This document shows, in pieces, positions 38,867 to 63,178 of a stretch of DNA of 64,000 nt. The position numbers and the translations under genes are program-made. How positions within the stretch are numbered: the stretch's first letter is position 1; each line of letters begins with the position of its first letter. Origin of the DNA: a virus (Duplodnaviria; Heunggongvirae; Uroviricota; Caudoviricetes); IMG/VR virus record IMGVR_UViG_3300028797_000106; one strand, written 5' to 3'. Below the pieces are notes generated by a model that did no database searches, was not told the origin of the DNA, and was given only the letters and a program-made list of their open reading frames with translations.

Positions 38867-38906
38867 AACATCATACATAAATAAAACACGAATAATTTGT
38901 TAAATT

Positions 38907-39416: not shown

Positions 39417-39984
39417 TGAAATGAAAGATAAGGTGCTTGCTGAATTGAACGAATCATTGAGTTCGTTTGATGAAAGAATGGTTGACCAGTTTGCTGAAGA
39501 ATTGGCCCACAAGCGCTGCGCTAACATTGTCGCATACGGTGCTGGAAGAATGGGTTATGGTATCAGAGCTTTCATTATGAGGCTCATGCATTTGGGTTTC
39601 CATGCTTATTGGTATGGTGACACGACCATCCCACATCTTGGACCGAACGATATGTTCTTGTTCGCATCTGCATCTGGCAAGACACAGTCTATCGTCAAGA
39701 TTGCTGAAATTGCGAAGGAAAAGACAGGTGTTCGCATCGCATCTTTGACAGGTGATGAAGAGTCACCGCTTGCCAAGCTTTCTGACTTGGTGATTAAATT
39801 TAAGGGATGCAACAACGGATTGAACTCCGAAAACTCTCCAGACAAGATTAACTCTATCCAGCCGATGACAACATTGAATGAACAGTCTGCGTTCATTTTC
39901 TTTGATTTGGTCTCTTTGAAGTTGATGGAAAAACTCAATGAAGACAACAAGACAATGAGCTTTAGACATAACCAGATTGAATGA
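39400..39984 (+). CDS. SIS-domain sugar-phosphate isomerase (6-phospho-3-hexuloisomerase / arabinose-5-P isomerase-like)
   Basis: VAYGAGRMGYGIRAFIMRLMHLGF...ASASGKTQSIV SIS signature, close to PHI/HxlB-type sequences. Confidence 0.65.
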   Translation: MVMTYNEMKDKVLAELNESLSSFDERMVDQFAEELAHKRCANIVAYGAGRMGYGIRAFIMRLMHLGFHAYWYGDTTIPHLGPNDMFLFASASGKTQSIVKIAEIAKEKTGVRIASLTGDEESPLAKLSDLVIKFKGCNNGLNSENSPDKINSIQPMTTLNEQSAFIFFDLVSLKLMEKLNEDNKTMSFRHNQIE

Positions 39985-40699
39985 TTTAGAAGGACAAGAA
40001 GATATGAATATAAGCACATCATTGATTTGTATGAACATGTCTCAGGTTGACAGGGACATAGAACGCATATTAAAGGCAGCAAATGGCGACCAAAGATTTA
40101 GCTGGTTTCATGCGGATGCGATGGACGGTCACTTCGTTCCGCGCCTTGGAATTTCACCAGAACTAATTCGTGACATTAAGACAACATTTCCGCAGATTCA
40201 CATTGACTCTCACTTGATGATTGCCGATCCGTTCACTTATGTGGATGTGATTGCTCCTTATTCTGATTGGGTTGTCTTCCATTATGAAGCAGTAACTGAC
40301 CCGATTAGAACATTGCAGAAGATGCGTAAGACATGGCCGAATGTTAAGGTGGGTCTCGCAATAAATTTGGCAACCGTCTTTAATCCTGAAATCATTAAGC
40401 TCTTTGACGGCGTGATGTTCATGGGAATCTCTCCAGGCGTTCTTGGAACGAATTCTTATCCAGAAATTGTGAAAGGCAAAATCGCAATGACGCCGAACCA
40501 TAAACATTACTTTGTAGATGGTTCTGTGAATTTCAACACAATTAAGGATTACCGTTTGATTAACCCGAACGGAACACTTGTTTGCGGTTCATCAACAATG
40601 TTTAAGAAAGATGAATTTACAGAAAATCTAAATCGTGAAGATTTGGTTGCTTACAACATCAACAGAATAAAGGACGCTATCGGATGCGAAAGACAGTAG
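39977..40699 (+). CDS. Ribulose-phosphate 3-epimerase family protein (Rpe/AlsE-like)
   Basis: FHADAMDGHFVPRLG, DSHLMI, HYEA, GLAINLATV, MGISPGVLGT align with Rpe catalytic motifs. Alternative ATG at 40004. Confidence 0.6.
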   Translation: MNDLEGQEDMNISTSLICMNMSQVDRDIERILKAANGDQRFSWFHADAMDGHFVPRLGISPELIRDIKTTFPQIHIDSHLMIADPFTYVDVIAPYSDWVVFHYEAVTDPIRTLQKMRKTWPNVKVGLAINLATVFNPEIIKLFDGVMFMGISPGVLGTNSYPEIVKGKIAMTPNHKHYFVDGSVNFNTIKDYRLINPNGTLVCGSSTMFKKDEFTENLNREDLVAYNINRIKDAIGCERQ

Positions 40700-42336
40700 T
40701 TATTCCCGCTGCGGGTCTTGGCTCACGCCTTGATGAATTCACAAAGAATTACAACAAAGCGATGTGCACACTTGGCCCTAAGCCAGTAATTTCTTACATC
40801 ATTGAAAAATTTACGAAGGACGATGAAATCATCATCTTGTTGGGATACAAAGGTGACTTGCTGAAACAGGTCGTGAAAGCGTGTTATCCTGACTGGAATA
40901 TCACATTTGTGAATGTTGATGTATTCCAGGGTCCGGGTTCGGGATTGGGATATTCATTGTCTTGTGCTAAGGAACTTTTGCAGAAGCCTTTCATGTTCTG
41001 GTCTAATGACTCACTGATTGATGAAAACATTGATGAATTTGATTATGACCATAACTTTATGGTTTTGTCAACATTCAGACCGACAAAGGCAGATTCTTAT
41101 CGTCATGCTCGCATCGGTAAGTATCAGGTTCAGAGCATTTTACCGAAGGGAGAATATGATCCTGAAGGTAAGACAACATTGCCTTACATCGGTATCTCTT
41201 ATGTCAAGGACTATAAACAGTTCTGGCAAGTTCAAGAAGACATGTATGAATTGTTCGTCAATGCCGGTGAAAGTGCTGGCTTGAATAACTTGAAGGACAT
41301 GAGATATGTTGTCACCAAAACTTGGACAGATACAGGCAACAAGGAAGAACTGATTGCTGCGAAGGAACGCTTCTCGAAGAACATGGAAGCAACAATTTTG
41401 GAAAAGCCTGAAGAAGCAATTTGGTTCATTGACAATAAAGTTGTGAAATTCCACATTGACCCGAAGTTCATTGAAGGTCGTGTGAAACGCTTCCATACAT
41501 TCATCAATGATGAGATGAAGAACCGCAACATCTTGATGCCGAAGCTTTTGAGCAATTCAGCGAATGTGTATGTGTATGAAAAGGCAGAAGGTAAGGTTAT
41601 GTCAACTGATGTAACTCCGTCTTCATTTGGCCTATTCATTCAGTTGTTCTTTGACAGCGTTAAAGAAAGAAGCGTCTCTGACGAATACAAGTTGAACATC
41701 TATAACGACTTCTATAAAGACAAGACTCTCAAAAGAATTCAGAAGTATTGTGAAGGATGGGAAGAACTTGATGGCGACTGTATTATTAACGGTTGTGTAT
41801 GTAATTCAGCCAGAAAGGTGATTGAAAACATTGACTGGGAAATGATCTCAAGAAGAGCCGTTATCACCGACAACTATCATGGAGACTTCCACTTGGAAAA
41901 CATTTTGGTTGACCGTCGTGAAAAGGGCAACACAAAGTGGATCATGCTTGACTGGAGACAAAACTTCGGAAAGACATACGATGGCGACATTTATTATGAC
42001 TTCGCTAAAATGTGGCATTCGTTGATTGTTAACCATCACATGGTGAAGGACAACTTGTTCAGCTTCCGTCAAAAGAATAACGGTGAATATGAAATTGACA
42101 TTCATCGCTCATTCATTGACACTGAATGTGAAGAAAAATTCAAGGATTTCTTGGTTCACTCTAAGTATGACGCCGACTTGGCAGAATTCTTGACAGCAGT
42201 CATCTTCTTGAACATCGCTGCTTGTCATGTGGGCGTTTATTCAACTTTCTTGTTCTATTTAGGTAAGTACCTGATAAACAAGTTTATTAAGAAACATCCT
42301 GATTACTTGAAACCTGATAGCGGTTTAATCTACTAA
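40684..42336 (+). CDS. Bifunctional sugar-1-phosphate nucleotidyltransferase / APH-fold sugar kinase
   Basis: N-terminal VVIPAAGLGSRL NTP-sugar pyrophosphorylase motif. C-terminal HGDFHLENILV...MLDWRQ Brenner-type kinase motif as in choline/aminoglycoside/N-acetylhexosamine kinases. Confidence 0.6.
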   Translation: MRKTVVIPAAGLGSRLDEFTKNYNKAMCTLGPKPVISYIIEKFTKDDEIIILLGYKGDLLKQVVKACYPDWNITFVNVDVFQGPGSGLGYSLSCAKELLQKPFMFWSNDSLIDENIDEFDYDHNFMVLSTFRPTKADSYRHARIGKYQVQSILPKGEYDPEGKTTLPYIGISYVKDYKQFWQVQEDMYELFVNAGESAGLNNLKDMRYVVTKTWTDTGNKEELIAAKERFSKNMEATILEKPEEAIWFIDNKVVKFHIDPKFIEGRVKRFHTFINDEMKNRNILMPKLLSNSANVYVYEKAEGKVMSTDVTPSSFGLFIQLFFDSVKERSVSDEYKLNIYNDFYKDKTLKRIQKYCEGWEELDGDCIINGCVCNSARKVIENIDWEMISRRAVITDNYHGDFHLENILVDRREKGNTKWIMLDWRQNFGKTYDGDIYYDFAKMWHSLIVNHHMVKDNLFSFRQKNNGEYEIDIHRSFIDTECEEKFKDFLVHSKYDADLAEFLTAVIFLNIAACHVGVYSTFLFYLGKYLINKFIKKHPDYLKPDSGLIY

Positions 42337-42430: not shown

Positions 42431-45115
42431 ATGGATGATAAGATCCAGCGTGCTTATAAGCACATCTTTTATGATAATTGGTCAAAGCAAATTTGTGTCC
42501 GATATGTTGGTGATACCGAGTTCACTAAAATTCCGTATAAGAAAGATTATTGGGTAAAAGATCCGACTGGTAAGTCTGAATGGAAGGACTTACACGGAAC
42601 ACCAATGATTAAGAAGCCTCTTACTGATAAAGAAATTGTTAAGACTTTGAAACAGTCAGGCGTTACTGTCGCCGAATCCGATTTGAAGGAAGAAGTTAAG
42701 TGGGCGCATGATGTATATGACAATGTTGAACTGACTGCGAACGTCAATGACTTCAACATTGGCTTTTATGATATTGAAGTTGCGGTACCGGAAGATGGTG
42801 GTTTTCCAAAGCCTGAAGAAGCTCGTTTTCCGATTAACTTGATTACATTTTATTCTACAAAGACCAAGACAACATATACTTGGGCTCTCAATCTAAACCT
42901 GCAAGAAGATGACATTGTTAAGAATGTAAGGAACTTCACAAATGAAGTTGATATGTTGAAGGACTGGCTGACTTGGTTCGCAAATGAGCACTTTGACATT
43001 ATCACAGGTTGGAACTCCGTTCTGTTTGACTTGCCTTACATCATTAACCGAATTAAGAACTTACGCATTCAACATGGCATCAAAAAGGAATTGGAAAGAG
43101 CATTGTCACCGTTAGGCAAGATGCCTGAAGCAAAGGATATCTCTGATAAAAAGCAGGGAAATGCCTTGGGTTCATCGTATGAAATACCAGCCTTGCTGCA
43201 TATTGACTACATGGACTTGTATAAGACATTTGCCAAACATGACCCGTTGCCATCATACTCACTGAACTATGTTTCAAAGTTGGTGACTGGCAAAGGTAAG
43301 TTGGAATATGAAGGAACCATCAATACGATTTGGCAGACTGACGGTCAGAAGTTCGGTCAGTATAACGTCGTTGACGTTCTTGACTTTGTTGAGATAGAAG
43401 AAGTTTGCCAGCTGTTCCCACTTATCATTGAATATGCGTATGATTGCTTGGTGACATTGGACAAGATTTACAACAAGGTGCCGACTACTGAAGGTTATAT
43501 CTTGAGATACATTCATGGCCGTCACATTGTTATGAATGACCGACCTGACCATCACGAAGACTGGTGGCGAGCCGAAGAATGTTTCAAAATCAGAAAACCT
43601 GATGGTTCAGATTACTTCCAGAACTGTGAATGGGAAAACGGTAAATATGAATTTGAAGAGTTCCATGTTAAAGCGGGTTACTGTTATGACTTCCCTGGCC
43701 GTTATGATGACTGTATGTCTTTTGACATTACTTCGTCATACCCTCACCATATCATGCAGTTCAACATCTCGCCAGAAGTTAAAATCAGACACCCGAAGAA
43801 AGAAGATATTCTGAGCGGAAAGGTCATAGCATCTGATGTGAACGAAGTCGGGTTCTTGAGAACCGATGATGCAATTCTTCCAAGTATCGTTAAGAAGGTA
43901 TTTGATGAAAGAAAGCATTATAAAGATCTGATGAAGGAAGCCAAGAAGAAGGGTGATAAACACATGGCGGCTATTTATGATAACCGTCAGGGCATCAAGA
44001 AGATCATTATTAACTCGATGTATGGTGTCTGCTTGGCACCGGGCTTCCACATGTATGACATTGACTGTGCAAGATCCATCACTCGCTGTGCCCGTGTCAC
44101 TTTGAGAGACTGGCTGAAGAAATCACTTGACGCATACTATGTGTCAACTGCATTGTTGTCAGATGTTCAGAAGTACTTTAACATCAAGTTGAAGAACACA
44201 AAGCCGCTTGAAATCAAGAACCGTGAATGCGTCTGCGTTCATGCTGATACTGACTCACTGTATTTCTGCATTAATGAATTGAAGATCAGACTTCGTCAAG
44301 AAGGAATGCATATCCAGACTGAAGAAGAACATCGTCAGTTCTATGCTACTGCTGAACAAATGTTCCAAGACTTCTTCGTGAAGGTTCTTGAAATCAGAGC
44401 AAAGAAGAGCCAGACGACAAACAAGATCAAGTATAACAGAGAAAACATTTTCTCTAACATGTTCTGCTTCGCAAAGAAACTTTATATCGGAAACGTCATT
44501 GACGCTGAAGGAACGCCGTATCCGTTTGACGCTGCAAAGCACAAGATAATGGGTGTTGGTATTAAGCGTTCTGATATGCCGGAATTCTGTAAGCAGGCTG
44601 CTGAAAAACTCGCATTTGATATCTGTGCTGGACAGGATTACGAAAAGTCACTTGAATTCATTCATAACACTTACGATGAATTCTGTGCTGCTGGACCTGA
44701 TGCAGTGTCAGCGAAGAAATCGGTTTCGGAATACACGAAGTATGTCACTGAACCAATTGACTCGTATGTCAAGAATGGTCTGCACTTTGATAAAGGACAA
44801 CCGTTCAATGCGAAGTGTGCACTGGCATATAACTATGTGATTACCAAACATAAGTTGCCGCTCATGCCGATTATGAACGGAAACAAATTTAACTATGTGT
44901 ATGTCAAGCCGACTAACCGATATAGAATTGAAGCGACTGCGTTCGTCGGAGCATGGCCGAAAGAATTCTATAAGATCTTTGAGGTTGACTATGAAACAAT
45001 GTTCTCGAAAACATTCTTGCCGTTGTTTGAGTCAATGTTCAAGGTAAAGAAATGGATAGGAGAAAAGGAAAGCATCTCACTGGAAAGAGGCGGTCTCGCA
45101 GCTTTCTTTGGATAG
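42431..45115 (+). CDS. DNA polymerase, family B (T4 gp43-like)
   Basis: Exo I FYDIEV; motif A DITSSYPHHIM; motif B KKIIINSMYGV; motif C VHADTDSLY; 894 aa. Confidence 0.9.
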   Translation: MDDKIQRAYKHIFYDNWSKQICVRYVGDTEFTKIPYKKDYWVKDPTGKSEWKDLHGTPMIKKPLTDKEIVKTLKQSGVTVAESDLKEEVKWAHDVYDNVELTANVNDFNIGFYDIEVAVPEDGGFPKPEEARFPINLITFYSTKTKTTYTWALNLNLQEDDIVKNVRNFTNEVDMLKDWLTWFANEHFDIITGWNSVLFDLPYIINRIKNLRIQHGIKKELERALSPLGKMPEAKDISDKKQGNALGSSYEIPALLHIDYMDLYKTFAKHDPLPSYSLNYVSKLVTGKGKLEYEGTINTIWQTDGQKFGQYNVVDVLDFVEIEEVCQLFPLIIEYAYDCLVTLDKIYNKVPTTEGYILRYIHGRHIVMNDRPDHHEDWWRAEECFKIRKPDGSDYFQNCEWENGKYEFEEFHVKAGYCYDFPGRYDDCMSFDITSSYPHHIMQFNISPEVKIRHPKKEDILSGKVIASDVNEVGFLRTDDAILPSIVKKVFDERKHYKDLMKEAKKKGDKHMAAIYDNRQGIKKIIINSMYGVCLAPGFHMYDIDCARSITRCARVTLRDWLKKSLDAYYVSTALLSDVQKYFNIKLKNTKPLEIKNRECVCVHADTDSLYFCINELKIRLRQEGMHIQTEEEHRQFYATAEQMFQDFFVKVLEIRAKKSQTTNKIKYNRENIFSNMFCFAKKLYIGNVIDAEGTPYPFDAAKHKIMGVGIKRSDMPEFCKQAAEKLAFDICAGQDYEKSLEFIHNTYDEFCAAGPDAVSAKKSVSEYTKYVTEPIDSYVKNGLHFDKGQPFNAKCALAYNYVITKHKLPLMPIMNGNKFNYVYVKPTNRYRIEATAFVGAWPKEFYKIFEVDYETMFSKTFLPLFESMFKVKKWIGEKESISLERGGLAAFFG

Positions 45116-46802: not shown

Positions 46803-47330
46803 ATGTATGAAGCACTGTTTCAAAGGATTAAATCAACCGACTTCCCTCTGGCCTGCCGCGGAATGTATTACTTCTCGAAAGGCAGACACGCACATCAAGA
46901 AAGGAAAGGATCTGGCATGCCTTACTTTGTTCACCCTCGCGGCGTTGCATACATCGTGATGGAACATGGCGGCACAGTTGACCAGATAAATGCAGCGCTT
47001 GCACATGACCTGCTTGAAGATACGGAAACATCCTATCTTGAAATCAAGGCAGTTGCCAATTCAAATCATTGTGCGGAACTCTGCGCTGAATTAAGAAACA
47101 ATGAATTTAAGAAAGAAGAACTCGGCAAGGAAAAATACATCACGGAAAAATTGCTCGGCATGAGCAATGACGCCCTTTTGATTAAACTTGCGGATATGGT
47201 TTACAATTCTTATGACATGCCTGGTGAAAAAGCATTGAACCGTATGTATAAGAATGTTTGTGAACTGCTTCTTAAGAGAGAATTATCGCCAATCTGCAAA
47301 GAACTTGCGGATTTGGTAATTTTGGCTTAA
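46803..47330 (+). CDS. Small (p)ppGpp hydrolase, HD-domain (SpoT/Mesh1-like)
   Basis: HAHQERKGSGMPYFVHPRGVAYIV...INAALAHDLLEDTETS matches the RelA/SpoT hydrolase-domain consensus. gtggaggtaaaac RBS. Confidence 0.6.
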   Translation: MYEALFQRIKSTDFPLACRGMYYFSKGRHAHQERKGSGMPYFVHPRGVAYIVMEHGGTVDQINAALAHDLLEDTETSYLEIKAVANSNHCAELCAELRNNEFKKEELGKEKYITEKLLGMSNDALLIKLADMVYNSYDMPGEKALNRMYKNVCELLLKRELSPICKELADLVILA

Positions 47331-48408: not shown

Positions 48409-48564
48409 ATGAAAAAGAAATACATCAAACCCGAAATGGAAATCCTTGATACAGGCGTTCAGTCACAGTTGCTGGCAGGCTCCAGCGACCCTTGGTGGAA
48501 AGAACCTGACCCTCCTGAAGAAGGCTGCGAAAGCTCATGGCATTGCGGCGGTTGGGGGAACTAA
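48409..48564 (+). CDS. hypothetical small Cys/Trp-rich peptide (51 aa)
   Basis: MKKKYIKPEMEILDTGVQSQLLAGSSDPWWKEPDPPEEGCESSWHCGGWGN; starts right after the upstream stop and ends at the GIY-YIG start. Confidence 0.25.
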   Translation: MKKKYIKPEMEILDTGVQSQLLAGSSDPWWKEPDPPEEGCESSWHCGGWGN

Positions 48565-49208
48565 TGACTAACATTAAGAACTGTGTTTACTTGGTTCGCT
48601 GTGACGGACATGATAGAGGCGTGTATAAGATTGGTTTGACAACTGACCTTGATACACGCATCAAGTCTTTAAGTTCAGCAACAGAAGCGCCCGGCCCATT
48701 TTATCCGTTGGCTGTTATTGAAACTGATAAGTATCGCTTATTGGAATCATACATGCATAGCAGATATACGGACGAACGCATGTTTCCTAATAAAGAATTT
48801 TTCAAATTCATTGATGAAGAAGGAAACGAATATGTTGATGATGTCATTGATGAAATGCAACGCCTTGCAGAATTAATGAATGCAAAGATTACTGTTTTTG
48901 ATGACAACATTGAAAAGGATGAAAAGAAAGGTCGAGCAAAGCGTTTCTATTTCAAGAACATTGGATTGAAAGGCGGAGACGAAGTTATCCTTGACATTCC
49001 TAAAAATGAAAACACGCCGCATACTTATTATGTTGCAGCTGACGGCAGACATATTGTTGAAGACGCGGCTGACATAAACAATAAAGAAGTTTGGTTGTCG
49101 GTTTCTAAACTGATGCAAGAATACACTGATACCCGTCAGTGGTCAGTTCATCCTGAATGGTGGTATCACGACGGAGTAAGTTGTGCGTCAAAAATCCAAA
49201 ATAACTAA
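48564..49208 (+). CDS. GIY-YIG homing endonuclease-like protein
   Basis: VYLVRCDGHDRGVYKIGLTTDLDTRIKSL is a GIY-YIG motif; C-terminal basic region. Confidence 0.55.
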   Translation: MTNIKNCVYLVRCDGHDRGVYKIGLTTDLDTRIKSLSSATEAPGPFYPLAVIETDKYRLLESYMHSRYTDERMFPNKEFFKFIDEEGNEYVDDVIDEMQRLAELMNAKITVFDDNIEKDEKKGRAKRFYFKNIGLKGGDEVILDIPKNENTPHTYYVAADGRHIVEDAADINNKEVWLSVSKLMQEYTDTRQWSVHPEWWYHDGVSCASKIQNN

Positions 49209-51106: not shown

Positions 51107-52246
51107 ATGGCAAATAAATTAGTCGCTAAATTTAAGAGAGAAAAAGTATTCGCCGATATCTTGGCAGCAGACAATGTAGAAGATGAATATCTGTCTACCA
51201 ACTGTGCGCCTGTTAACTTGTTATTTAGTGGAAAACTTCTTGGTGGAATTAAAAAGGGTAAGATGAGCACCATCTGTGCTGACTCCGGTTGGGGTAAGTC
51301 ATTGATTGGCTTGAACTGTCTGGCTGCTGCATATAAGTCGGGCATGACATGCGTTGTCATTGACACAGAAAACGCTTTCAATGTTGAACTTGCTGCATCG
51401 CTTGGCATTGACGTTGACGATATCTTGATTTTCAAGACTTCGCGCATTCCTGAAATCAAACAGATTTACGGTCGCATTAACCACGGCCTAACACGAGCCG
51501 AATCTCGTGAGATTTTCGTGCTTCTTGACTCTTGGGGTCCGATTGTTGAAGCACAGGTTATGGAAAAGGCAGAAGAAGCATCATCTGCTGTGAACATGTC
51601 AGCAGCTAAGTTCAAGAACGAACTTGCTAACATCATCAACGCTTGCGGAAACACATCGCTGATTGTCAACCATGTGTATGAATCGTTGCAGATGTATGGT
51701 GAAAAGTTCGCTGTCCCAGGTGGTAAGAGATTGTTCTTCAACTCTGACGCTATCGTTCTTGCTTCGTCAGCAGCTAAGGCTAAGGACAAGGAAGGAAACA
51801 TCTACGGTAAGGTCATTACAGCAGGTGTTAAGAAAGGTCGTGCTGCTAAGGAATTCTCTAAGACCAAGTTCTTGATTGAACATTCTGGTGGTATCAACCC
51901 TTACTTCGGTTTGTTGGAAGATGCTATTGACTCCGGTGCGGTTATCAAGGTAAAGCAGGGCGTCTCTGTTGTTTACCAGCGTGTTGGAATTGACGAAGAC
52001 GGAAAAACATGGAAGGAAGCAGACCTTTACTGCGCTGCATTCTGGATTCCTCTTTACAAGAGCGAAGTATTCAACCACTATGTGGAAAAGAAATACGCTT
52101 TTGAAGATGCAACTCTTGTTGCTTCCGTTGAAAACATTATGGACCTTTTGAATGCTGACCCGTCAACTTTGTCTACTCAGTCTATCGGCGCTAAACGCAA
52201 TGAAGACGATGACGATGACGAAGACTACGATGTGGACGCTGAATAA
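51107..52246 (+). CDS. uvsX: UvsX/RecA-like recombinase
   Basis: RecA-fold Walker A ADSGWGKS; overall layout like T4 UvsX; acidic C-terminal tail. Confidence 0.8.
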   Translation: MANKLVAKFKREKVFADILAADNVEDEYLSTNCAPVNLLFSGKLLGGIKKGKMSTICADSGWGKSLIGLNCLAAAYKSGMTCVVIDTENAFNVELAASLGIDVDDILIFKTSRIPEIKQIYGRINHGLTRAESREIFVLLDSWGPIVEAQVMEKAEEASSAVNMSAAKFKNELANIINACGNTSLIVNHVYESLQMYGEKFAVPGGKRLFFNSDAIVLASSAAKAKDKEGNIYGKVITAGVKKGRAAKEFSKTKFLIEHSGGINPYFGLLEDAIDSGAVIKVKQGVSVVYQRVGIDEDGKTWKEADLYCAAFWIPLYKSEVFNHYVEKKYAFEDATLVASVENIMDLLNADPSTLSTQSIGAKRNEDDDDDEDYDVDAE

Positions 52247-52269
52247 TCGTCAATAATTCTTAAGAGAGT

Positions 52270-52300
52270 GGGCAGAAAATTTTTGCCCATTCTTTTTTTC
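52270..52300 (+). terminator. Weak intrinsic terminator followed by TTTATATTTT box
   Basis: gggca-gaaaattttt-gccc hairpin then ttctttttttc. Confidence 0.4.
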
Positions 52301-52349: not shown

Positions 52350-52913
52350 ATGTCAGTTGTTATCATGTGTGGTTTGGACCGATGCGGGAAATCTACACAA
52401 ATAGAAAAGATCAAGAATTATTTCAAAGAAAAAGGCAGAGACTCGACAGTAATTCACTATTCCGGCATTGATGTTCCAGAAAGTGGACCATTCAAGCAGG
52501 GTGCACAATTCGTTGCATCAAGAGCAAGATATGATGACATGCTTCACCTTGCTGATGAAATGACTGACGCTGAACAAGTTCTGATTTTTGACCGAGCACA
52601 CCTCGGGGAAATGGTTTACTCTCCGCTTTATAGAAAGTATAATGGGGAATATGTTTTTGAACTCGAACAGAAGTATCCGAACTTACTTGAGAAGGCACTT
52701 CTATTTGTTGTCATTGACACTCCAGAGCATCTACTTGCTCGTGAAGACGGTATGAGTTTCTCTAACAAGATTGAAGATAAGCAGAAAGAGATTGAATGTT
52801 TTAAGAAGGCATTCGGTATGAGCAACATCAAGAATAAAGAGCTTATTGACATATCTGACAAGAGCATTGAAGATGTTTGGAATATCATTAAACAAAAATT
52901 GGAGAATGTATGA
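52350..52913 (+). CDS. Deoxynucleoside monophosphate kinase (thymidylate-kinase-like)
   Basis: IMCGLDRCGKSTQ P-loop like Tmk GxDGxGKST; sits directly upstream of the hydroxymethylase. Confidence 0.6.
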   Translation: MSVVIMCGLDRCGKSTQIEKIKNYFKEKGRDSTVIHYSGIDVPESGPFKQGAQFVASRARYDDMLHLADEMTDAEQVLIFDRAHLGEMVYSPLYRKYNGEYVFELEQKYPNLLEKALLFVVIDTPEHLLAREDGMSFSNKIEDKQKEIECFKKAFGMSNIKNKELIDISDKSIEDVWNIIKQKLENV

Positions 52914-53659
52914 TTGAAAATTTTGAAATGAAAGAAGATTTGGAAATGCGTCCTGACATGGCTCGAAATGACGCAGTTCTTAATGAAATTCATCAGATGC
53001 TTGCTTATAAGTATCTGTCCGGCGACAAGGTTGGAAATACATGGGAACTGATTGACCAGCATTTGACTCTCAACCCGCTTCAGCCTTATGTGAATGTTCT
53101 TGGCCGTCCGTTCAAACACGACTACCTTGAAAAAGAACATAAGTGGTATATGTCGCAGGATCTGTCTATTAAGGGATGGATGGACGACATCAAGATTTGG
53201 CAGTGGTGTGCATCTAAGGATGACAAGCAGCTCATCAACTCGAATTATGGTTGGTGCGTGTTCTCTGAAGAAAACGGTTCTCAATATGAAAACTGCATTG
53301 AGAAGATGAAGGCCGATGTGAACACAAGAGAAGCATTGATGATTTACACAAGACCGTCAATGCACAAGGACGCTGTTGAAAATGGTAAGCATGATTTCAT
53401 GTGTACTGTCTCTGCACAGGCGATGATTCGTGACGGCAAGCTTTATTACATTGTGACTCAAAGATCTTGTGACTTGGTGACTGGCTTCTCGTTTGACTTC
53501 CCATGGCACTGCTTCGTTTATCAGATGATGTTCCAAGAATTGAAGAAGACATACCCTGAATTGGAAGTGGGTAGCATCTTCTATAACATCGGGTCTTTGC
53601 ATGTTTATGAAAGACACGAAAATCTCTTGAAGAAATGGGCAGCATATAACGAAGTATAA
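52910..53659 (+). CDS. Deoxycytidylate (pyrimidine) 5-hydroxymethyltransferase, T4 gp42-like
   Basis: KIWQWCASKDDKQLINSNYGWCVF, ALMIYTRPSMHKD, HDFMCTVSAQAMIRDGK and YNIGSLHVYERH closely track T4 gp42 blocks (KIWQQVASSKGEINSNYGWAIW, GIMIYTRPSMQFD, SDFMCTNTVQYLIRDKK, WNVGSLHVYSRH) by recall. ThyA-fold active-site Cys present. Confidence 0.8.
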   Translation: MIENFEMKEDLEMRPDMARNDAVLNEIHQMLAYKYLSGDKVGNTWELIDQHLTLNPLQPYVNVLGRPFKHDYLEKEHKWYMSQDLSIKGWMDDIKIWQWCASKDDKQLINSNYGWCVFSEENGSQYENCIEKMKADVNTREALMIYTRPSMHKDAVENGKHDFMCTVSAQAMIRDGKLYYIVTQRSCDLVTGFSFDFPWHCFVYQMMFQELKKTYPELEVGSIFYNIGSLHVYERHENLLKKWAAYNEV

Positions 53660-55095
53660 TGAAAGCAACGGATTTTGAAAGAATCATCATTAAAGCACTC
53701 TTCGTGAATGAAGGGGTAAGATCTAAAGTCTTACCCATGCTTTCCGTTGATTGGTTCTTTGATGTTGATGACAAGTTTATTGTAGACCGCATTTTGGATT
53801 ACAATACTCGCTTCGGACGATTGCCCAATGTCATTGAAATGAAGCGTCTTATCACTGATGAACAGACGCTGAAAATCTTTGATGAAGTGATGGGTATCGC
53901 TGACGAGGAAGTCAATACAGAATTCATTCTTGAAGAAATTGAAGAATATGTTCGTAAGCGACTTCTGTATAATCAGGCGGTTAAGATTACATCTTATGTG
54001 ACCGGAGGAGATAAGACACAGCCGGGCAGTTCTTCAAGTGAGAGCTTTGCTGATAATGTGTCCGATGCAGAATCGTTCTCCTTTGACACGAACATTGGTT
54101 TTGACTTCTTCAATGATCCTCAGAGATTGTATGAAGATGCCAACATTCATGAGAAGATTTACAACTGTGGCATTGAAACACTCAATGACATGATTGGAGG
54201 TGGGTTCCATGAAAAGTCGCTGACACTTATCATGGCAGGAACGAACGTAGGTAAGACACTTATTATGTGCTCACTTGCGAACAACTTCGTCATGAATGGA
54301 CATAACGTATTGTATGTGACATTTGAAGACCCGGAAAACAAGATTGCATCTCGTGTTGCTCAAAATATGTTTGACATCACGCAGCAGCAATATCGTCAAA
54401 TGTCAAAGGAAGATTTCGGAAAGGCGTTCGCAAAAGCGAAGTCACATCTTCGTGGCAACCGTTTGGTTATTAAGGAATTTCCAGAATACTCGACGAATGC
54501 GATGAAGATCCGTTCACTTATCAAGGAACTTGACGAAAAGCAAGGTTTCAAACCTGATGTCTTGTTCATTGACTATATCGGATGTATGGTTCCGAACGGA
54601 CGCTTCAACCCGAACATGAACTCAAACACACTCTTGCTCACTGTTGCTATGCAGGTAAGAGCATTGGGTATGGAATTGGGTATTCCTGTCATATCTGCTT
54701 CACAGGCAAACCGTGGCGGTAACGGCGTTGCTGAAATCGCATTGACGGACGTAGCCGACTCATTCGGTCAGAACATGAAGGCAGACGCTGTCTTCGGTGT
54801 CACACAACCGGAAGAAATGGCTGAACAGAACCTTTACATTGTGAAGTTGTTGAAGACAAGATACGGTGCACCATTGAATGGAAGGCCGATATTGACCCGT
54901 ATTGGCGTGGATAAGGAAAAGCAGCGCATATTTGATATAGATATTGCAGCAACATCACAAAGCGCCGCAAACATCTTTACGCAGCCTTCACCGACACCGC
55001 GTAAGAAGACATTGAAAAACACAGAGGAAGACGAGCCGTATGAATTTGACGAGGGTTCTTCCGAAACACCGATTGATGAAATAGACTTTGTATAG
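53659..55095 (+). CDS. Replicative DNA helicase, DnaB family (T4 gp41-like)
   Basis: Walker A MAGTNVGKT, Walker B VLFIDYIG, arginine finger region SQANRGG; 478 aa. Confidence 0.85.
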   Translation: MKATDFERIIIKALFVNEGVRSKVLPMLSVDWFFDVDDKFIVDRILDYNTRFGRLPNVIEMKRLITDEQTLKIFDEVMGIADEEVNTEFILEEIEEYVRKRLLYNQAVKITSYVTGGDKTQPGSSSSESFADNVSDAESFSFDTNIGFDFFNDPQRLYEDANIHEKIYNCGIETLNDMIGGGFHEKSLTLIMAGTNVGKTLIMCSLANNFVMNGHNVLYVTFEDPENKIASRVAQNMFDITQQQYRQMSKEDFGKAFAKAKSHLRGNRLVIKEFPEYSTNAMKIRSLIKELDEKQGFKPDVLFIDYIGCMVPNGRFNPNMNSNTLLLTVAMQVRALGMELGIPVISASQANRGGNGVAEIALTDVADSFGQNMKADAVFGVTQPEEMAEQNLYIVKLLKTRYGAPLNGRPILTRIGVDKEKQRIFDIDIAATSQSAANIFTQPSPTPRKKTLKNTEEDEPYEFDEGSSETPIDEIDFV

Positions 55096-56115: not shown

Positions 56116-57102
56116 ATGCCAGTAAAAAGAGACCTAAGTGGTTATTTCGCAGAAATCAAGCAAGCAGCAGAACCGGCTGCTCAGACACGCAAATCTTATA
56201 AGGTTGAGGACGCATTTACGCCGACCTATAAGGACAATAAATTTAGCTGTGTCATTCGTTTCCTCCCATCACATCCTGAAGAATTTAAGCCTTTCATTGA
56301 GAACCGCACCCACATGTTTAAGGTGAACGGTGACCAGTGGTTTGGATGCGACTGTCTTGGCAAGTTCGGCAAGCCTTGTCCGATTTGCGAATACAACAGA
56401 AAGCAGTTCCAGATCTACAAGAACAAGGAAGAAGCTAAGCAGCATTCCTTCGGAAAGGCTCGTTCAAGATATGTATGTAATATCTTGGTGGTTCGTAACC
56501 CGAACAACACTGAACAGGAAGGAAAGGTCTATCGCTTTGAATTTGGTGCTCAGATCATGAAGCTCATCTCTGAAGCCATGACTGACAAGGACGATGGAAT
56601 TGAAGTTAAGAAGGGTATCAACCCGTTTGATTGGTTTGACGGCGCTAACTTCGTTTACGAAGGCGTTAAGACTGCAAACGGACCTAAGCTTGATGCTTCT
56701 CACTTCGGCCCACAACAGCAGATTAACAAGTGGACTGGAAAGAAGTATGAAGACTTGACTGAAAAGGAAATCGACGAAGTTGAAAGCAAGCTTTATCGTC
56801 TCGACGAATGCTACCACAAGGAAGAAGATGTTGCTGATTACAACGGAATTCTTGAACGTTACGAAAAGAAGACCGGTAAGACACTGTTTGACGGTATTCC
56901 TGTCGCAGGAACAGCAGCCGCTTCAAATTCCATCGCATCAACCAATCCGTTCGCTGCACCTGCCGCACCCGCAGCAGCTCCTGCAGTAGAATCATTTGAC
57001 TTTGATGCGCCAGCCGCTGAACCTGTAAAGGCTGCACCGGCTGCTGCTGAAACACTTGACGACGCTGCCTTCTGGGCACAAGTCAATGACCAGCAGGGTT
57101 AA
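56116..57102 (+). CDS. Single-stranded DNA-binding protein, T4 gp32-like
   Basis: CVIRFLPS, zinc ligands C..C...C.C, YVCNILVVRNPNNTEQEGKVYRFEFG and FDGANFV match T4 gp32 blocks; Ala/Pro-rich acidic C-tail. Confidence 0.85.
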   Translation: MPVKRDLSGYFAEIKQAAEPAAQTRKSYKVEDAFTPTYKDNKFSCVIRFLPSHPEEFKPFIENRTHMFKVNGDQWFGCDCLGKFGKPCPICEYNRKQFQIYKNKEEAKQHSFGKARSRYVCNILVVRNPNNTEQEGKVYRFEFGAQIMKLISEAMTDKDDGIEVKKGINPFDWFDGANFVYEGVKTANGPKLDASHFGPQQQINKWTGKKYEDLTEKEIDEVESKLYRLDECYHKEEDVADYNGILERYEKKTGKTLFDGIPVAGTAAASNSIASTNPFAAPAAPAAAPAVESFDFDAPAAEPVKAAPAAAETLDDAAFWAQVNDQQG

Positions 57103-57179: not shown

Positions 57180-58103
57180 ATGATTGATTTTTATAATGAA
57201 AACCTTCGCATTCTGAATTTCACACACATTGACTTTGACGGAGCTGTCTCCGCTGTCGTGATTAAGAATTACTACAAGAATGTGATTACGGAACAAACGA
57301 ATTACGGAAGAGAACAGGAAATCATCACAAAGGTGAACATTCACCACGGTAAGTATGATGCCATCATCTTCACTGACTTTACACCGACCGAAGGCGGCCC
57401 AGGAATGCTGAAGAATGCGATAGAAGAAATCGCATTTGTGGCGGGCGTGCCTGTCATGGTTCTTGACCATCATGAGTCTGCGTTGAAGTATCATGACCCA
57501 CAGAAAAATGTTTTCATCAACATAGGCTACTGCGGGGCAATGCTTGCTTACAAGTTCTTCAGCGTTAAGAAGGATCTCTCACACATCAAGGATCTTGTCG
57601 GACTCGCAAATGATTATGACTTGTTCACACTGAAGGATCCTCGTGCTATGCCTTTCAATGCTCTTTATTGGCAGATGGGCTTTCAGTGGTTCATGACCCG
57701 CTTTGGAAAGGGCAACACAAATCTTTACCCAGAAGAAAAGCAGTACTTGCTAGAATACAAACAGGCAGTCCAGACAACCTATGATAATCTTCCGGTATCT
57801 GACTTGCCGCATAATGGCTGCTTCTATGAATGTGAAAGATACATGGCTGAAATGAGTCACCGTCTTTCTAAGGATGGGTATCAGTATCAGATCATTAAGC
57901 ACGGAAATGCATTGTCTATCCGTTCGGCAACTGATAACATCAACCTTGTTGAAGTGTGCCAATACATGGGCAAGGGAGGCGGACACCGAAAGGCTGCCGG
58001 CATTCCTCTTCGTGTAGAGGACGACATCAAGCAACTCGTTCAGCAGATTTGTTTCGCTGTTGAACATCAACTTAACACACATAAAGATGGACTACCATTC
58101 TAA
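57180..58103 (+). CDS. DHH-family phosphoesterase (RecJ/NrnA-like)
   Basis: HIDFDGAVSA (motif I), LDHHES (DHH), GGGHRKAAG (DHHA1). Confidence 0.7.
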   Translation: MIDFYNENLRILNFTHIDFDGAVSAVVIKNYYKNVITEQTNYGREQEIITKVNIHHGKYDAIIFTDFTPTEGGPGMLKNAIEEIAFVAGVPVMVLDHHESALKYHDPQKNVFINIGYCGAMLAYKFFSVKKDLSHIKDLVGLANDYDLFTLKDPRAMPFNALYWQMGFQWFMTRFGKGNTNLYPEEKQYLLEYKQAVQTTYDNLPVSDLPHNGCFYECERYMAEMSHRLSKDGYQYQIIKHGNALSIRSATDNINLVEVCQYMGKGGGHRKAAGIPLRVEDDIKQLVQQICFAVEHQLNTHKDGLPF

Positions 58104-60437: not shown

Positions 60438-61181
60438 ATGAAAATTTGTGGACTTGACCTTTCTTATACTTCGCCCGGTATCTGCATTGAAGAACTTGAT
60501 GATAATCTCGATGTGATATCTTGCGAAGGCTATGGTTTTTCAATTCCTAAGTATGCTGGCGGGAACATCGTAGAATACCGCGGTAAGAAAGATTTCCCTG
60601 ATGATTATGCCAGATTTGAATTCTTGCAGGACCACATTCTTAAGTGGGTTCAGGATTGTGAATATGTTTTCGTTGAAGACTACGCAATTAACGCAAGCGG
60701 CTTGGTCTTTGACCTAGCTGAATTTGAAGGCTACATCAAGCAAGCTCTTTACCGTTCTGGAAAGACTTTGCGATTCTATTCGCCGACTACAAACAAGAAA
60801 TTTTATGCAGCATACGGCGGTGCTGACAAGATCTCAATGTATCAGGCTTTCAATGCCTTTACTGGTAAGAAGCCTAACATTTCAAATTTGCCGGTCGTGA
60901 ACAAAGGCGACGGCGTGAAACCAACATCGGATATTATTGACGCCCACGCCCTCTGCGAAATGGGTAGACAAGAACTTCGTCTTCGCAGAAAAATTGACAA
61001 ACTTGAAGATCTTCCTTCTCATGTTCAGGAGGTCTTTGCCCTCAAACAAGAGAAATCACTGAAGAAAATTGAAAAGAAGATTGCCAAAGGAACTGCAAAG
61101 AAACACGAAAAGGTCACGCTTGGCATTACAGAAACGCCGATGATTGGCAAGAACCTCTCAGATTTGGATAGAGGTGTCTAA
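60438..61181 (+). CDS. RuvC-like Holliday junction resolvase
   Basis: MKICGLDLSYTSPGICI N-terminal catalytic Asp context, VEDYA, IIDAHALCEMG resemble RuvC motifs. Confidence 0.6.
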   Translation: MKICGLDLSYTSPGICIEELDDNLDVISCEGYGFSIPKYAGGNIVEYRGKKDFPDDYARFEFLQDHILKWVQDCEYVFVEDYAINASGLVFDLAEFEGYIKQALYRSGKTLRFYSPTTNKKFYAAYGGADKISMYQAFNAFTGKKPNISNLPVVNKGDGVKPTSDIIDAHALCEMGRQELRLRRKIDKLEDLPSHVQEVFALKQEKSLKKIEKKIAKGTAKKHEKVTLGITETPMIGKNLSDLDRGV

Positions 61182-61711
61182 TGTCAATGTTCGGTGCTGA
61201 TTTTGCGACGGGTGAGTTCATTCCAAGATACCCCGGCAAGTGTCTGAACAAAAACGGCAAAATGCCTGGGGTTCATAGCAAGATTACTTTCCGCTCCAGC
61301 TGGGAGTCAATCTTTGCGAACTGGTGTGACATTGAAGACAATGTAATCGAGTGGGGATCTGAATGTATTGAAATCCCTTACTTCTCGCAGATTGACAACA
61401 GGAAACATAAGTATGTCACTGACTTTATTGTCTTGACGAGGAATAAACACACCGGCAAGATTGAAAAGTGGCTCGTGGAAGTCAAGCCTGCATGTCAGGT
61501 ACCGCAGCTTAATGAATGCGGCGCCATCATCTTTCCAGAGCTGAATAAGAAGAAAAAGTTGACACAAAAGAGAATTGATGCGTGGCAGGAACGCTGTAAT
61601 GTACTACGCAGAAATCACGAAAAATGGACAGAAGCTAGGAAATGGGCTAGCCTGCACGGATATGTCTTCAAGATTATCACCCAGGAAGAGCTTGGCTTAC
61701 TCGCGGAATAA
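61181..61711 (+). CDS. hypothetical protein
   Basis: 176 aa; TAATG overlap. Confidence 0.5.
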   Translation: MSMFGADFATGEFIPRYPGKCLNKNGKMPGVHSKITFRSSWESIFANWCDIEDNVIEWGSECIEIPYFSQIDNRKHKYVTDFIVLTRNKHTGKIEKWLVEVKPACQVPQLNECGAIIFPELNKKKKLTQKRIDAWQERCNVLRRNHEKWTEARKWASLHGYVFKIITQEELGLLAE

Positions 61712-61723: not shown

Positions 61724-63178
61724 TTGGAGAATTTTAGCATGAAGTCAGATTTTCAGAAATTTCTTACAGAAGGCACAATGCCCAGCACAGGCAACATTGT
61801 GGTATTCTATGGCAGATATAACCCACCACATGTAGGGCACTTGGGCGTTGTGAAGAAACTCGCTGCGATGGCTAAGGAACAAGGCGGCGAAGCAATTATT
61901 TCACTTTCTGGCTCAGAAGACCCTGAAAAGAACCCGCTTACATTTGAAAAGAAGCGTCATTATGTTGAACTGATGTGTAAGCCTTATGGCGTCACAGTTG
62001 ATGACAAGCCTTGTAATAAGGTCTATGATCTTATCCGTGACTGCGCATTCCTTTCACAGAAGCGCGGCGGCGGCACCGTAACATTGCTTGCTGGTTCTGA
62101 CCGCGTCCCTGCATATCAGGGTTTCGCAAAATCACTTCTGAAGAAATATCAAGGCCGTGGTGAAATTCTCGATGTAAATGTTGTTGTTCAGGAAGCAATG
62201 GCTCGTGATTCGGCAGAAGCATTCTCAGCATCACAGATGCGTGCTTTCATTAAGAATGGCGACATTGAAGGCTTCGTTGAGCATGCTCCGTTTGACAACA
62301 AGGAAGAAGCTGAACAGATGTATCATGACTGCGCTAAGGGCATGAACATTGAAGAACATGCTTATCAGCCAGTTTTGGGTAAGTTGCTCGGTGAAGCACA
62401 CATTTCCCACGATGCAAGCGATGTAAGAGCTGCAGCAATGGAAATGGGTAAGGAAGTTTCCGAACACATCAATGAGCTGACCGGAGAACCTGACCATTTG
62501 TGGTTTATCGGCGGTTGTGTTCGTGATGAAGTTTTGGGCAAGACACCGAACGATTTTGACCTTATCACGACAATGTATTACAAGACCTATGCCGAACTGT
62601 TCAACACAAAGGACATTCGTTTCAGAGGTAAGCAGATCATCGTTGTGCCGATTGTGGCAGGTGAAGAATTTGAAACTGCTTGCTTGCATAAGGGAGAAAA
62701 GATTGAAGACAACCTTCAGTTCCGCGATTTGACAATGAATGCTATGGCTCAGGACCTAGCTACTGGAAAGATTGTTGACCCGTGCGGTGGCTTGAAGGAT
62801 ATGAAGATGAAGAAGCTCAACCTAACGAATTTCATGAAGGAAGCGATGGCAGCAGGCGGTCAGCCGGTTGCAGTTCTTCGTGCCATTCGTTTCTACTCAA
62901 CATACGGTTGGGACTTCACCGCTGACTCGCTAGAGACATTGAAGAAATTTAGCGAAGTAAACAAGGGCGTGCTTAAGGTGACACCTCGTCAGTTTGACAA
63001 GGACTGGCAGAAACTTATTAAGGGTTCAAATGTTCAGGGCGCCTTAGATTTGATTGTGGAACTTGGCTTCCATGATTACCTAATGAAATCACAGCCGCTT
63101 TACGCTGAATACCGCAATAAGGATGCTGAAGAAAAACCAGAGGCAGAAGAACCAGTTGAAGGAGCTGAAGAAGAATAA
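61724..63178 (+). CDS. Fusion protein: NadM-type NMN adenylyltransferase-like domain plus CCA/poly(A)-polymerase-type nucleotidyltransferase domain
   Basis: N-terminal VVFYGRYNPPHVGHLGVVKKLA (archaeal NadM GRFQPFHKGHL type). C-terminal WFIGGCVRDEVLGKTPNDFDLITT (class II CCA head-domain GGxVRDxLLG...DxD). Confidence 0.55.
   Translation: MENFSMKSDFQKFLTEGTMPSTGNIVVFYGRYNPPHVGHLGVVKKLAAMAKEQGGEAIISLSGSEDPEKNPLTFEKKRHYVELMCKPYGVTVDDKPCNKVYDLIRDCAFLSQKRGGGTVTLLAGSDRVPAYQGFAKSLLKKYQGRGEILDVNVVVQEAMARDSAEAFSASQMRAFIKNGDIEGFVEHAPFDNKEEAEQMYHDCAKGMNIEEHAYQPVLGKLLGEAHISHDASDVRAAAMEMGKEVSEHINELTGEPDHLWFIGGCVRDEVLGKTPNDFDLITTMYYKTYAELFNTKDIRFRGKQIIVVPIVAGEEFETACLHKGEKIEDNLQFRDLTMNAMAQDLATGKIVDPCGGLKDMKMKKLNLTNFMKEAMAAGGQPVAVLRAIRFYSTYGWDFTADSLETLKKFSEVNKGVLKVTPRQFDKDWQKLIKGSNVQGALDLIVELGFHDYLMKSQPLYAEYRNKDAEEKPEAEEPVEGAEEE

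Follow-up and report, generated by a model that had tools for sequence, protein, structure and literature searches.

A predicted T4 gp42-type dCMP hydroxymethylase coupled to a thymidylate kinase-fold kinase, and a putative route to glycosylated 5-hydroxymethylcytosine, in a large uncultured phage

Hypermodifications of phage DNA govern the attack by restriction, CRISPR and type IV systems, and they are a source of enzymes for epigenetic sequencing. In the T-even phages the base is 5-hydroxymethylcytosine (5hmC), which is formed before replication and carries glucose or gentiobiose. The subject here is a pair of genes at positions 52350–53659 of a 64,000-nucleotide stretch of DNA from a virus of the Caudoviricetes (IMG/VR record IMGVR_UViG_3300028797_000106), which is called the window below. 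The pair encodes a predicted deoxycytidine monophosphate (dCMP) hydroxymethylase of the T4 gp42 type and a kinase of the thymidylate kinase (Tmk) family, and the window also contains a putative glycosyltransferase (GT) with a set of sugar-phosphate enzymes. The explanation preferred here, with a probability of roughly 0.7, is that the phage synthesizes 5-hydroxymethyl-dCMP, phosphorylates it with this kinase and places a self-made sugar on the 5hmC of its DNA. The genome measures roughly 264 kb; the window covers about a quarter of it, and the negative results for the window apply to that part only.

The phages RB69 and DLP3 possess ThyA homologs described as “gp42-like”, which are flavin- and O2-dependent 5-hydroxy-dCMP synthases (Lee et al., Nucleic Acids Research 2026, PMC13326640). 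Their DNA carries arabinose ether-linked to 5-hydroxycytosine (5hoC), and the earlier assignment of arabinosyl-5hmC in RB69, from 2018, was wrong and has been withdrawn (PMC13326640). Annotation by similarity to gp42 is no longer safe, because the gp42-like enzymes of the arabinosylating phages were found in 2025–26 to be hydroxylases. Residue rules, in E. coli ThyA numbering, were given for the superfamily: N177D indicates dCMP and not deoxyuridine monophosphate (dUMP) as the substrate, L143D/E indicates a non-methyl product, the acidic residue correlating with water access and hydroxymethyl products, and D169N is diagnostic of hydroxylases, all nine of nine further D169N enzymes tested having made 5hoC (PMC13326640). 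In a different type of system, the methyltransferase (MT)/TET-dependent GT clusters of phages, hexose, N-acetylhexosamine or heptose is placed on 5hmC (Pyle et al., bioRxiv 10.1101/2023.12.21.572611).

The two genes of the locus are the following.

52350–52913, plus strand: predicted 5-hydroxymethyl-dCMP (deoxynucleoside monophosphate, dNMP) kinase, a P-loop protein of thymidylate kinase fold, 187 residues, ATG start (PF02223, phrog_761)
52910–53659, plus strand: T4 gp42-type dCMP hydroxymethylase, predicted 5-hydroxymethyl-dCMP synthase, 249 residues, ATG start (PDB code 1b49, E 5e-41)

The core of the proposal, a 5-hydroxymethyl-dCMP synthase coupled to a dNMP kinase, is itself considered probable. 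The 249-residue protein matches Pfam PF00303 (Thymidylat_synt, 2.2e-14) and phrog_160 (2e-37). Its best PDB sequence matches are the chains of T4 dCMP hydroxymethylase (1b49, 6l18 and 6a9a, E 5e-41 to 6e-39, residues 68–244), while the CMP hydroxymethylase MilA (1e-7) and the best ThyA (about 1e-6) match more weakly. It is 38–39% identical to T4 gp42, with which it has the blocks INSNYGW, MIYTRPSM, DFMCT and GSLHVY.RH in common. The closest relatives from isolated phages are a protein of Pseudoalteromonas phage XG4 (49.5% identity) and then proteins of T4-like phages (about 39%). The score against the T4 enzyme is 144 bits versus 36 bits against RB69 gp48, to which the protein is 20% identical (E 2e-7). 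The original prediction had described an ORF sharing long blocks with the T4 hydroxymethylase and not with canonical ThyA, preceded directly by a Tmk-like kinase gene; its coordinates are exact, the blocks are real, and both identities are confirmed, because the E-values are far beyond chance.

The active site was examined in an alignment of the query with E. coli ThyA, T4 gp42, RB69 gp48 and the dUMP hydroxymethylase SPO1 gp29, again in E. coli ThyA numbering. At positions 143, 169 and 177 the query and T4 gp42 both have D/D/D, ThyA has L/D/N, SPO1 gp29 D/D/N and RB69 gp48 E/N/D. The ThyA-N177 position, whose residue touches N3 and N4 of cytosine when it is Asp and O4 and N3 of uracil when it is Asn, is occupied by D196 in the segment GFSFDFPW, aligned with D179 of T4 gp42, and is Asn in ThyA and SPO1 gp29. 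The L143 position corresponds to D162 in HDFMCT (T4 D145), and the segment at D169 reads RSCD in the query, RSND (D171) in T4 gp42 and RSQN in RB69. The catalytic Cys (C146 in ThyA, C148 in T4) is C165 and the phosphate-binding R166 and S167 are R185 and S186, all of them invariant in the family. The query also equals T4 gp42 at E58, W80, Y94, C146, R166, S167, G173, H207 and Y209, and RB69 gp48 departs from both at positions 80, 94, 173 and 209. The D/D/D signature is present in all 117 full-length homologs recovered from 5.8 billion proteins. In a survey of 80 related IMG/VR viral loci, with flanks fetched up to 10 kb on each side, the eight-position signature is identical in 78 and Asn169 is found in none; over the roughly 200 family members examined, the count of Asn at this position is 0.

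The substrate is predicted to be dCMP because of the Asp at the N177 position. The original prediction of 5-hydroxymethylpyrimidine DNA had named this contact as the one that separates dCMP from dUMP enzymes, and the comparison with T4 gp42 and SPO1 gp29 gives Asp as in T4 gp42, with no agreement with ThyA, which narrows the base to hydroxymethylcytosine. Action on dUMP, be it that of an ordinary thymidylate synthase or that of a dUMP hydroxymethylase of the SPO1 type leading to 5-hydroxymethyluracil (5hmU) DNA, is hardly credible. The protein is a member of the ThyA superfamily and its homologs are mostly annotated as “thymidylate synthase” in databases, but it has Asp at both the N177 and the L143 positions, it matches ThyA 35 orders of magnitude less well than the T4 hydroxymethylase, and the NCBIfam ThyA equivalogs score 27–40 bits versus cutoffs of 108–427. 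The presence of a separate ThyX-like ORF also speaks against a role on dUMP.

23736–24278, plus strand: ThyX-like ORF, tentatively a flavin-dependent thymidylate synthase (Pfam Thy1 1.4e-6, 28.7 bits versus a cutoff of 24.8)

This ORF would tentatively supply thymidine monophosphate (dTMP), leaving the ThyA homolog free for another role. Its C-terminal 49 residues alone match Thy1 and RHK replaces the canonical RHR; a search of the window for the RHRxxS motif located nothing for ThyX, and a PDB search with the ORF gave no match.

The product is predicted to be hydroxymethyl and not hydroxy because Asp is kept at the D169 position. If the protein were a flavin- and O2-dependent 5-hydroxy-dCMP synthase of the RB69 gp48/DLP3 gp80 type, the sugar would be ether-linked to 5hoC. 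Such an assignment draws on the gene set of the window, which resembles the arabinosyl-5hoC clusters (phrog_761 kinase, phrog_4098 fusion, HAD, SIS and GT-B proteins, between polymerase and uvsX/helicase), and on the fact that all pentosylated phage cytosines chemically characterized so far are 5hoC-linked. It is nevertheless improbable, given Asp and not Asn at D169, the retention of W80, Y94, G173 and Y209, which are changed in RB69 gp48, the fourfold difference in bit score noted above and the lack of N169 among the relatives.

A methyl product is not predicted, because of the Asp at the L143 position. An XP-12-type dCMP methyltransferase, which would form 5-methyl-dCMP, is also expected to have Asp at N177, as is any dCMP-using ThyA homolog, and this possibility was judged with an alignment that contains no XP-12-type reference sequence. 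It appears very improbable: the acidic residue at the L143 position correlates with hydroxymethyl products (PMC13326640), the nearest characterized relative is the T4 hydroxymethylase, and the GT linked to this family, which is closest to T4 beta-GT, needs a hydroxyl acceptor. The 249-residue protein, as far as its sequence can be read, is a new, divergent gp42-family enzyme whose expected product is 5-hydroxymethyl-dCMP and not hydroxymethyluracil, dTMP or 5-hydroxycytosine.

The 187-residue protein matches Pfam PF02223 (Thymidylate_kin, 5.5e-11, 42.9 bits versus a cutoff of 27) and phrog_761, “thymidylate kinase” (3.9e-15), which also includes RB69p045, while PDB Tmk sequences match it at E 0.05 only. 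It contains the P-loop GLDRCGKST, and in the family alignment R82 and H84 of a D-R-A-H stretch are invariant, D81 is nearly so, and a D-G-x-S segment is invariant. An AlphaFold (AF2) model built from 23 homologs has a predicted local distance difference test (pLDDT) score of 92.8. Its closest structures are Tmk from A. aeolicus (PDB codes 4s35 and 2pbr, TM-scores 0.66–0.73), Tmk from Plasmodium and Thermus, and YorR from B. subtilis (3kb2). The same structural neighbours have been given for RB69p045 and DLP3_078, “nucleotide kinases” with no assigned function (PMC13326640). A gp1-type kinase (1DEK family) was searched for in the window and none was found, the best tblastn match of RB69 gp1 having an E-value of 1.4; judged on sequence, the kinase of the window is an analogue and not a homologue of gp1.

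The association of the kinase with the hydroxymethylase recurs in other phages. A gene of the kinase family lies within the fetched flanks in 21 of the 80 loci and directly abuts the hydroxymethylase gene upstream in 11. One locus with both a Tmk-like kinase and a hydroxymethylase (L031) also has a gp56-type deoxycytidine triphosphatase (dCTPase). Eight of the 120 best homologs of the hydroxymethylase are natural kinase–hydroxymethylase fusions of 415–424 residues with an N-terminal P-loop domain.

Metagenomic fusion proteins, N-terminal Tmk-like kinase and C-terminal dCMP hydroxymethylase: P0063, P0065, P0069, P0070, P0072, P0075, P0078, P0082

Pairwise BLAST is marginal for the kinase (E 3e-3 against the fusion N-domain, 6e-4 against RB69p045), and therefore profile–profile comparison and PHROGs were used for its relationships; the fusion N-domain matches the profile of the kinase family with 97.4% probability (E 1e-11). 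Loci of the hydroxymethylase family without a Tmk-like kinase belong, by taxonomy, mostly to T4-like phages, which use gp1, and L036 has a gp1 match. As the partner to which the kinase is fused in these proteins has the free nucleotide as its substrate, the kinase would use the product of the hydroxymethylase. Phosphorylation of the modified dNMP, as suggested in the original prediction, is supported by gene linkage, fusions and membership in phrog_761, and 5-hydroxymethyl-dCMP is most likely the substrate, although its identity comes by deduction only.

The hydroxymethylase might be assigned correctly while the Tmk-like kinase is employed otherwise, as a dTMP kinase, in the supply of UTP or nucleoside diphosphate (NDP)-sugar, or on a base in DNA, phosphorylation of hydroxymethyl-dCMP then falling to the host or to a gp1-type kinase encoded in another part of the genome. 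RB69 and DLP3 have both kinase types, and phosphorylation of modified dCMP was demonstrated for the gp1-type kinase, the Tmk-like one being left unassigned (PMC13326640); moreover, three quarters of the genome lie outside the window. The fusions, and the fact that the two genes repeatedly overlap or abut, argue instead for consecutive steps on one nucleotide, and the loci devoid of a Tmk-like kinase are mostly those of gp1-using phages. Such an arrangement is considered unlikely, and the kinase of the window is preferred as the one acting on 5-hydroxymethyl-dCMP.

The pair is located in a T4-like replication module.

42431–45115, plus strand: family B DNA polymerase (PolB; Pfam DNA_pol_B and exonuclease domain)
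51107–52246: UvsX, T4-like replication module
52262–52296, plus strand: terminator-like hairpin with T-run, after uvsX and ahead of the kinase gene (16-pair stem, 5 G-C pairs)
53659–55095: DnaB-like helicase, T4-like replication module
56116–57102: gp32, T4-like replication module

With the hairpin a new transcription unit begins. An AGGAG is located about 8 nucleotides 5' of the kinase ATG at 52350, the kinase and hydroxymethylase genes overlap by 4 nucleotides (ATGA) with a GGAG upstream of the hydroxymethylase start, and the hydroxymethylase stop overlaps the helicase start as TAATG. Because of the upstream hairpin and these two overlaps, the kinase and the hydroxymethylase are a translationally coupled pair heading an operon that runs into the replicative helicase and gp32. 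The PolB is 24% identical to RB69 gp43 (E 1.5e-43). A DHH/DHHA1 protein (RecJ- or nanoRNase-like, 57180–58103) adjoins gp32 and is conserved in a relative on a 266-kb contig. Likely mobile endonuclease genes are also present in the module (T5orf172/MUG113, 48537–49208; TnsA-like N-domain, 61181–61711), and the relative L005 has a TnsA-like gene nearby too.

No match at the DNA level was obtained by megablast of the 51–56 kb region against 50,697 phage records. The exact kinase protein is also present on a 264-kb metagenomic contig, and the relative on the 266-kb contig (GCA_045597865.1, JAZLKX010000052.1) has a hydroxymethylase 81% identical to that of the window, with the gene order kept. Cluster names point to no host except through one partial homolog, which was binned with a metagenome-assembled genome of the Succinivibrionaceae. 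The lineage consists of large uncultured phages (contigs of 185–266 kb), probably from gut or rumen samples. The window contains no transfer RNA genes; it does contain a 479-residue fusion of a cytidylyltransferase-like domain and the head of a CCA-adding enzyme/poly(A) polymerase (61739–63178).

The genes at 37613–42336 were linked to the hydroxymethylase in the original prediction as a GT and a sugar pathway; these genes exist, and the first of them is described below.

37613–38866, plus strand: GT-B glycosyltransferase, predicted DNA 5hmC glycosyltransferase, 417 residues (AF2 model, Foldseek)

This protein has almost no sequence-family signal. Its AF2 model (pLDDT 93.1, predicted TM-score 0.90) shows a GT-B fold, and the top PDB structures found with Foldseek are those of T4 beta-glucosyltransferase (1qkj, E 1.2e-8; 1bgt; 1c3j), followed by MshA, BshA and T4 alpha-GT (1y6f). 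Superposition on 1bgt gives a TM-score of 0.53 when normalised by the length of the query and 0.65 by that of the target, and the second-best viral neighbour in BFVD is a “DNA beta-glucosyltransferase” (TM-score 0.74, E 5.5e-20). Members of this GT family adjoin genes of D/D/D hydroxymethylases in the unrelated contigs L048, L082 and L085. In L048 the GT, 35% identical to that of the window, is immediately upstream of the hydroxymethylase, and in L082 and L085 the GT-family gene follows the hydroxymethylase and a dCMP deaminase. The sugar genes of L048 (908–8111) are different, comprising a xylose isomerase-like TIM barrel, two Zn-dehydrogenases, an RPE and a double nucleotidyltransferase. This set is reminiscent of cytidine diphosphate (CDP)-ribitol synthesis (TarI/TarJ-like) and suggests yet another 5hmC adduct. 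Because L048 pairs the GT with quite different sugar genes, it is the GT and not the sugar pathway that is the constant partner of the hydroxymethylase, and the donors accepted by the family appear to differ from phage to phage. On the basis of the model and of its linkage to hydroxymethylase genes, the 417-residue protein is predicted to be a 5hmC-DNA glycosyltransferase. A further glycosyltransferase (24674–25495, Pfam Glyco_tranf_2_4 1.3e-6) is unrelated to it.

The GT gene is followed by four genes for sugar-phosphate enzymes.

38913–39416, plus strand: KdsC-type HAD sugar-phosphate phosphatase, 167 residues (TIGR01670 9.2e-18; Pfam Hydrolase_3 weak)
39400–39984, plus strand: single-domain SIS isomerase of the 6-phospho-3-hexuloisomerase lineage, 194 residues (TIGR03127 HxlB 9.6e-43)
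40004–40699, plus strand: enzyme of the ribulose-phosphate/allulose-6-phosphate 3-epimerase family, 231 residues (PF00834 1e-24)
40684–42336, plus strand: bifunctional AfhE-type protein, sugar-1-phosphate nucleotidyltransferase (N-terminal) and APH-like kinase (C-terminal), 550 residues (Pfam NTP_transferase and APH)

The SIS protein matches YckF (PDB code 1m3s) at 3e-29 versus 5e-7 against 3etn, which resembles arabinose-5-phosphate isomerases, and the GutQ model gives 4e-4. Its assignment to the arabinose-5-phosphate isomerase family (phrog_5670, KdsD/GutQ/3etn) is ruled out, as it is of the HxlB type, but it may still act on ribulose-5-phosphate; on mechanistic grounds, a hexuloisomerase acting on ribulose-5-phosphate is expected to yield the arabino configuration. 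For the epimerase the rpe and AlsE models of NCBIfam tie, as do PDB 4nu7 and 3ct7, and the motifs H-x-D...MDGHFVP, D-x-H-L-M and VDG are intact. The 550-residue protein has an RmlA/GalU/GlmU-like N-terminus (NCBIfam) and matches phrog_4098 over residues 3–543 (E 1.6e-12), a family that also contains the AfhE-type enzyme of RB69, gp52:53; the relationship to the RB69 protein is remote, with no BLAST match. The HAD protein of the window is KdsC-type and matches no PHROG; the AfhF-type phosphatases are those of phrog_1238, which include RB69p051. In a tblastn comparison with the RB69 cluster, the window proteins that match are PolB, UvsX, the helicase, weakly the ThyA homolog, and the SIS protein over 41 residues only. 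Orthology of the sugar module with that of RB69 is rejected on this basis, the links being at the level of PHROG families only. A reverse ribulose-monophosphate shunt, in which the hexuloisomerase and a hexulose-phosphate synthase would feed formaldehyde to methylene-tetrahydrofolate, was set aside, as a hexulose-phosphate synthase (OMPdecase family) could not be detected among the genes of the window.

This phage is not alone in having both a T4-type hydroxymethylase and an AfhE-type enzyme, because an independent lineage also combines them: on the 204-kb viral contig L070, six genes within 6 kb (4706–10675) encode a Tmk-like kinase, a protein similar to T4 alpha-GT (phrog_2888), an AfhE-like fusion 43% identical to that of the window, a small HAD, a C5 cytosine-methylase-like protein of 441 residues and, beside it, a nucleotide-level hydroxymethylase with the D/D/D signature.

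In the proposed pathway, Cys165 of the folate-dependent hydroxymethylase would attack C6 of dCMP and methylene-tetrahydrofolate would give the one-carbon unit, the exocyclic methylene then being resolved by water, not hydride, to yield 5-hydroxymethyl-dCMP. The Tmk-fold kinase would convert this nucleotide, and perhaps dTMP too, to the diphosphate, in place of the unrelated T4 gp1, after which the host NDP kinase would form the triphosphate and the phage family B polymerase would incorporate it to give 5hmC DNA. After replication, the beta-GT-like GT-B enzyme would place a sugar on the hydroxymethyl group, with an NDP-sugar from the adjacent module as the donor. For synthesis of the donor, the epimerase and isomerase would provide a sugar phosphate, the kinase domain of the AfhE-type protein a bisphosphate, the HAD a sugar-1-phosphate and the nucleotidyltransferase the NDP-sugar. 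One route could lead from xylulose-5-phosphate through ribulose-5-phosphate, arabinose-5-phosphate, the 1,5-bisphosphate and arabinose-1-phosphate to NDP-arabinose, and another from fructose-6-phosphate through allulose-6-phosphate, allose-6-phosphate, the 1,6-bisphosphate and allose-1-phosphate to NDP-allose. Each route employs all five enzymes of the module. By deduction, the sugar may thus be arabinose made from ribulose-5-phosphate, or a hexose (allose, for instance) with fructose-6-phosphate as its precursor.

It is tentatively proposed, at somewhat less than even odds, that this lineage makes a glycosylated 5hmC not yet seen chemically, either D-arabinosyl-5hmC or 5hmC bearing an uncommon hexose, for instance allose formed from fructose-6-phosphate by the AlsE-like epimerase and the SIS protein of hexuloisomerase type, and that in either case the Tmk-family kinase is a dedicated hydroxymethyl-dCMP kinase channelling the modified nucleotide.

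Several points weigh against the pathway as a whole. The chemistry of the hydroxymethylase clade is read from residue rules, and the nearest characterized enzymes are 38–49% identical; the D169N rule itself was derived in a single study, in which about a dozen enzymes were tested (PMC13326640). The kinase is not an orthodox Tmk, scoring 35.5 bits versus a cutoff of 83.25 for the NCBIfam dTMP kinase model TIGR00041; it represents a divergent phage branch of the Tmk-like family, and its base specificity is unreadable from sequence. To this is added the RB69/DLP3 result on gp1-type kinases given above. With the exception of the AfhE-type fusion, the sugar genes are not orthologous to those of the characterized arabinose pathway. 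A gp56-type dCTPase was searched for in the window and none was found, and MazG, dUTPase and dCMP deaminase are not among the best 25 of 27 families in a Pfam scan of all ORFs of the window. As no dCTPase was found, nothing in the 64 kb shows exclusion of deoxycytidine (dC) from the DNA. The extent of dC replacement is a matter of deduction, because the window covers only about a quarter of the genome. What was observed is family membership, the active-site signature, gene linkage, the fusions and the fold, and every substrate and product is inferred from these.

Other genes of the window fall outside the pathway. A group with functions in the salvage or reconstitution of nicotinamide adenine dinucleotide (NAD) occupies 152–4566 and comprises a nicotinamide mononucleotide adenylyltransferase–Nudix fusion (152–1234), an isochorismatase/nicotinamidase-like protein (1318–1908) and NAD synthase (3790–4566); it may be a counter-measure to NAD-depleting defence. 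An island of low GC content (13211–16491, 0.30 versus about 0.42) includes a Stealth-family hexose-1-phosphoryltransferase (13924–14814), whose target may be the cell surface or DNA, and a phosphoribosyltransferase-like protein (15649–16491). The ORF at 13211–13903, on the minus strand, is 30% identical to that at 9707–10387, and an N-terminal TS[YW]..RI motif, recognized by eye only, is common to it and the ORF at 14811–15644. An RNA repair-like set (26021–29408) contains a P-loop kinase (AAA_33, 26021–26449), a metallophosphoesterase (26888–27664) and a T4 Rnl1-type RNA ligase placed by size only at 28266–29408. A RelA/SpoT-type HD hydrolase, similar to small alarmone hydrolases, is encoded at 46803–47330 (N-terminus of TIGR00691, 2.9e-16).

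The locus offers a clean counter-example to the hydroxylases of the arabinosylating phages, as the genuine hydroxymethylase signature occurs here together with a sugar-activation enzyme of the arabinose type and with sugar-phosphate enzymes in a new assortment. If the proposal is true, it would add a novel sugar-5hmC base together with a second way to phosphorylate hydroxymethyl-dCMP, independent of gp1 and with fusion enzymes included, and the AfhE-type sugar-activation module would have been joined independently to the hydroxymethylase and hydroxylase branches of the ThyA superfamily.

The system resembles that of T4 in the gp42 family and its D/D/D signature, with the catalytic Cys and the folate-contact Asp169, in the predicted modification of the mononucleotide and its subsequent phosphorylation by a kinase, in a GT-B enzyme nearest to T4 beta-GT and in the PolB/UvsX/helicase/gp32 module. 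Unlike in T4, the kinase belongs to the Tmk family and not to that of gp1, its gene overlaps that of the hydroxymethylase and the two are fused in relatives; the donor apparently comes from a five-gene phage module and not from host UDP-glucose, and a gp56 dCTPase is not seen in the window. From its sequence, the kinase putatively stands in for gp1 without being its homologue, and it comes from a Tmk-like family of phages that has no experimental assignment of function.

With the arabinosyl-5hoC systems (Afh pathway) of RB69, DLP3, HY126 and Thanatos (PMC13326640), the locus shares the phrog_761 kinase, the phrog_4098 fusion, HAD, SIS and GT-B proteins, and the position beside the polymerase and uvsX. 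The ThyA homolog is of the Asp169 hydroxymethylase type here and of the Asn169 flavin hydroxylase type there, the SIS protein is of the HxlB lineage versus the arabinose-5-phosphate isomerase family, and the HAD is KdsC-type versus the GmhB/1xpj-like AfhF type. The window also has an extra 3-epimerase of the RPE/AlsE type and a GT outside the araGT family (phrog_3891), and its kinase and ThyA homolog are 10 kb from the sugar genes. The literature examined contains no description of the predicted combination of pre-replicative 5hmC, a beta-GT-like transferase and a self-encoded AfhE-type module that includes an epimerase and an enzyme of the hexuloisomerase type.

The clusters described by Pyle et al. 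are similar in that diverse sugars are placed on phage 5hmC by GT-B enzymes related to glycosyltransferases of the cell envelope. However, 5hmC arises there after replication, by site-specific methylation and oxidation, whereas here it is predicted to be made as a nucleotide before replication, which would permit complete replacement.

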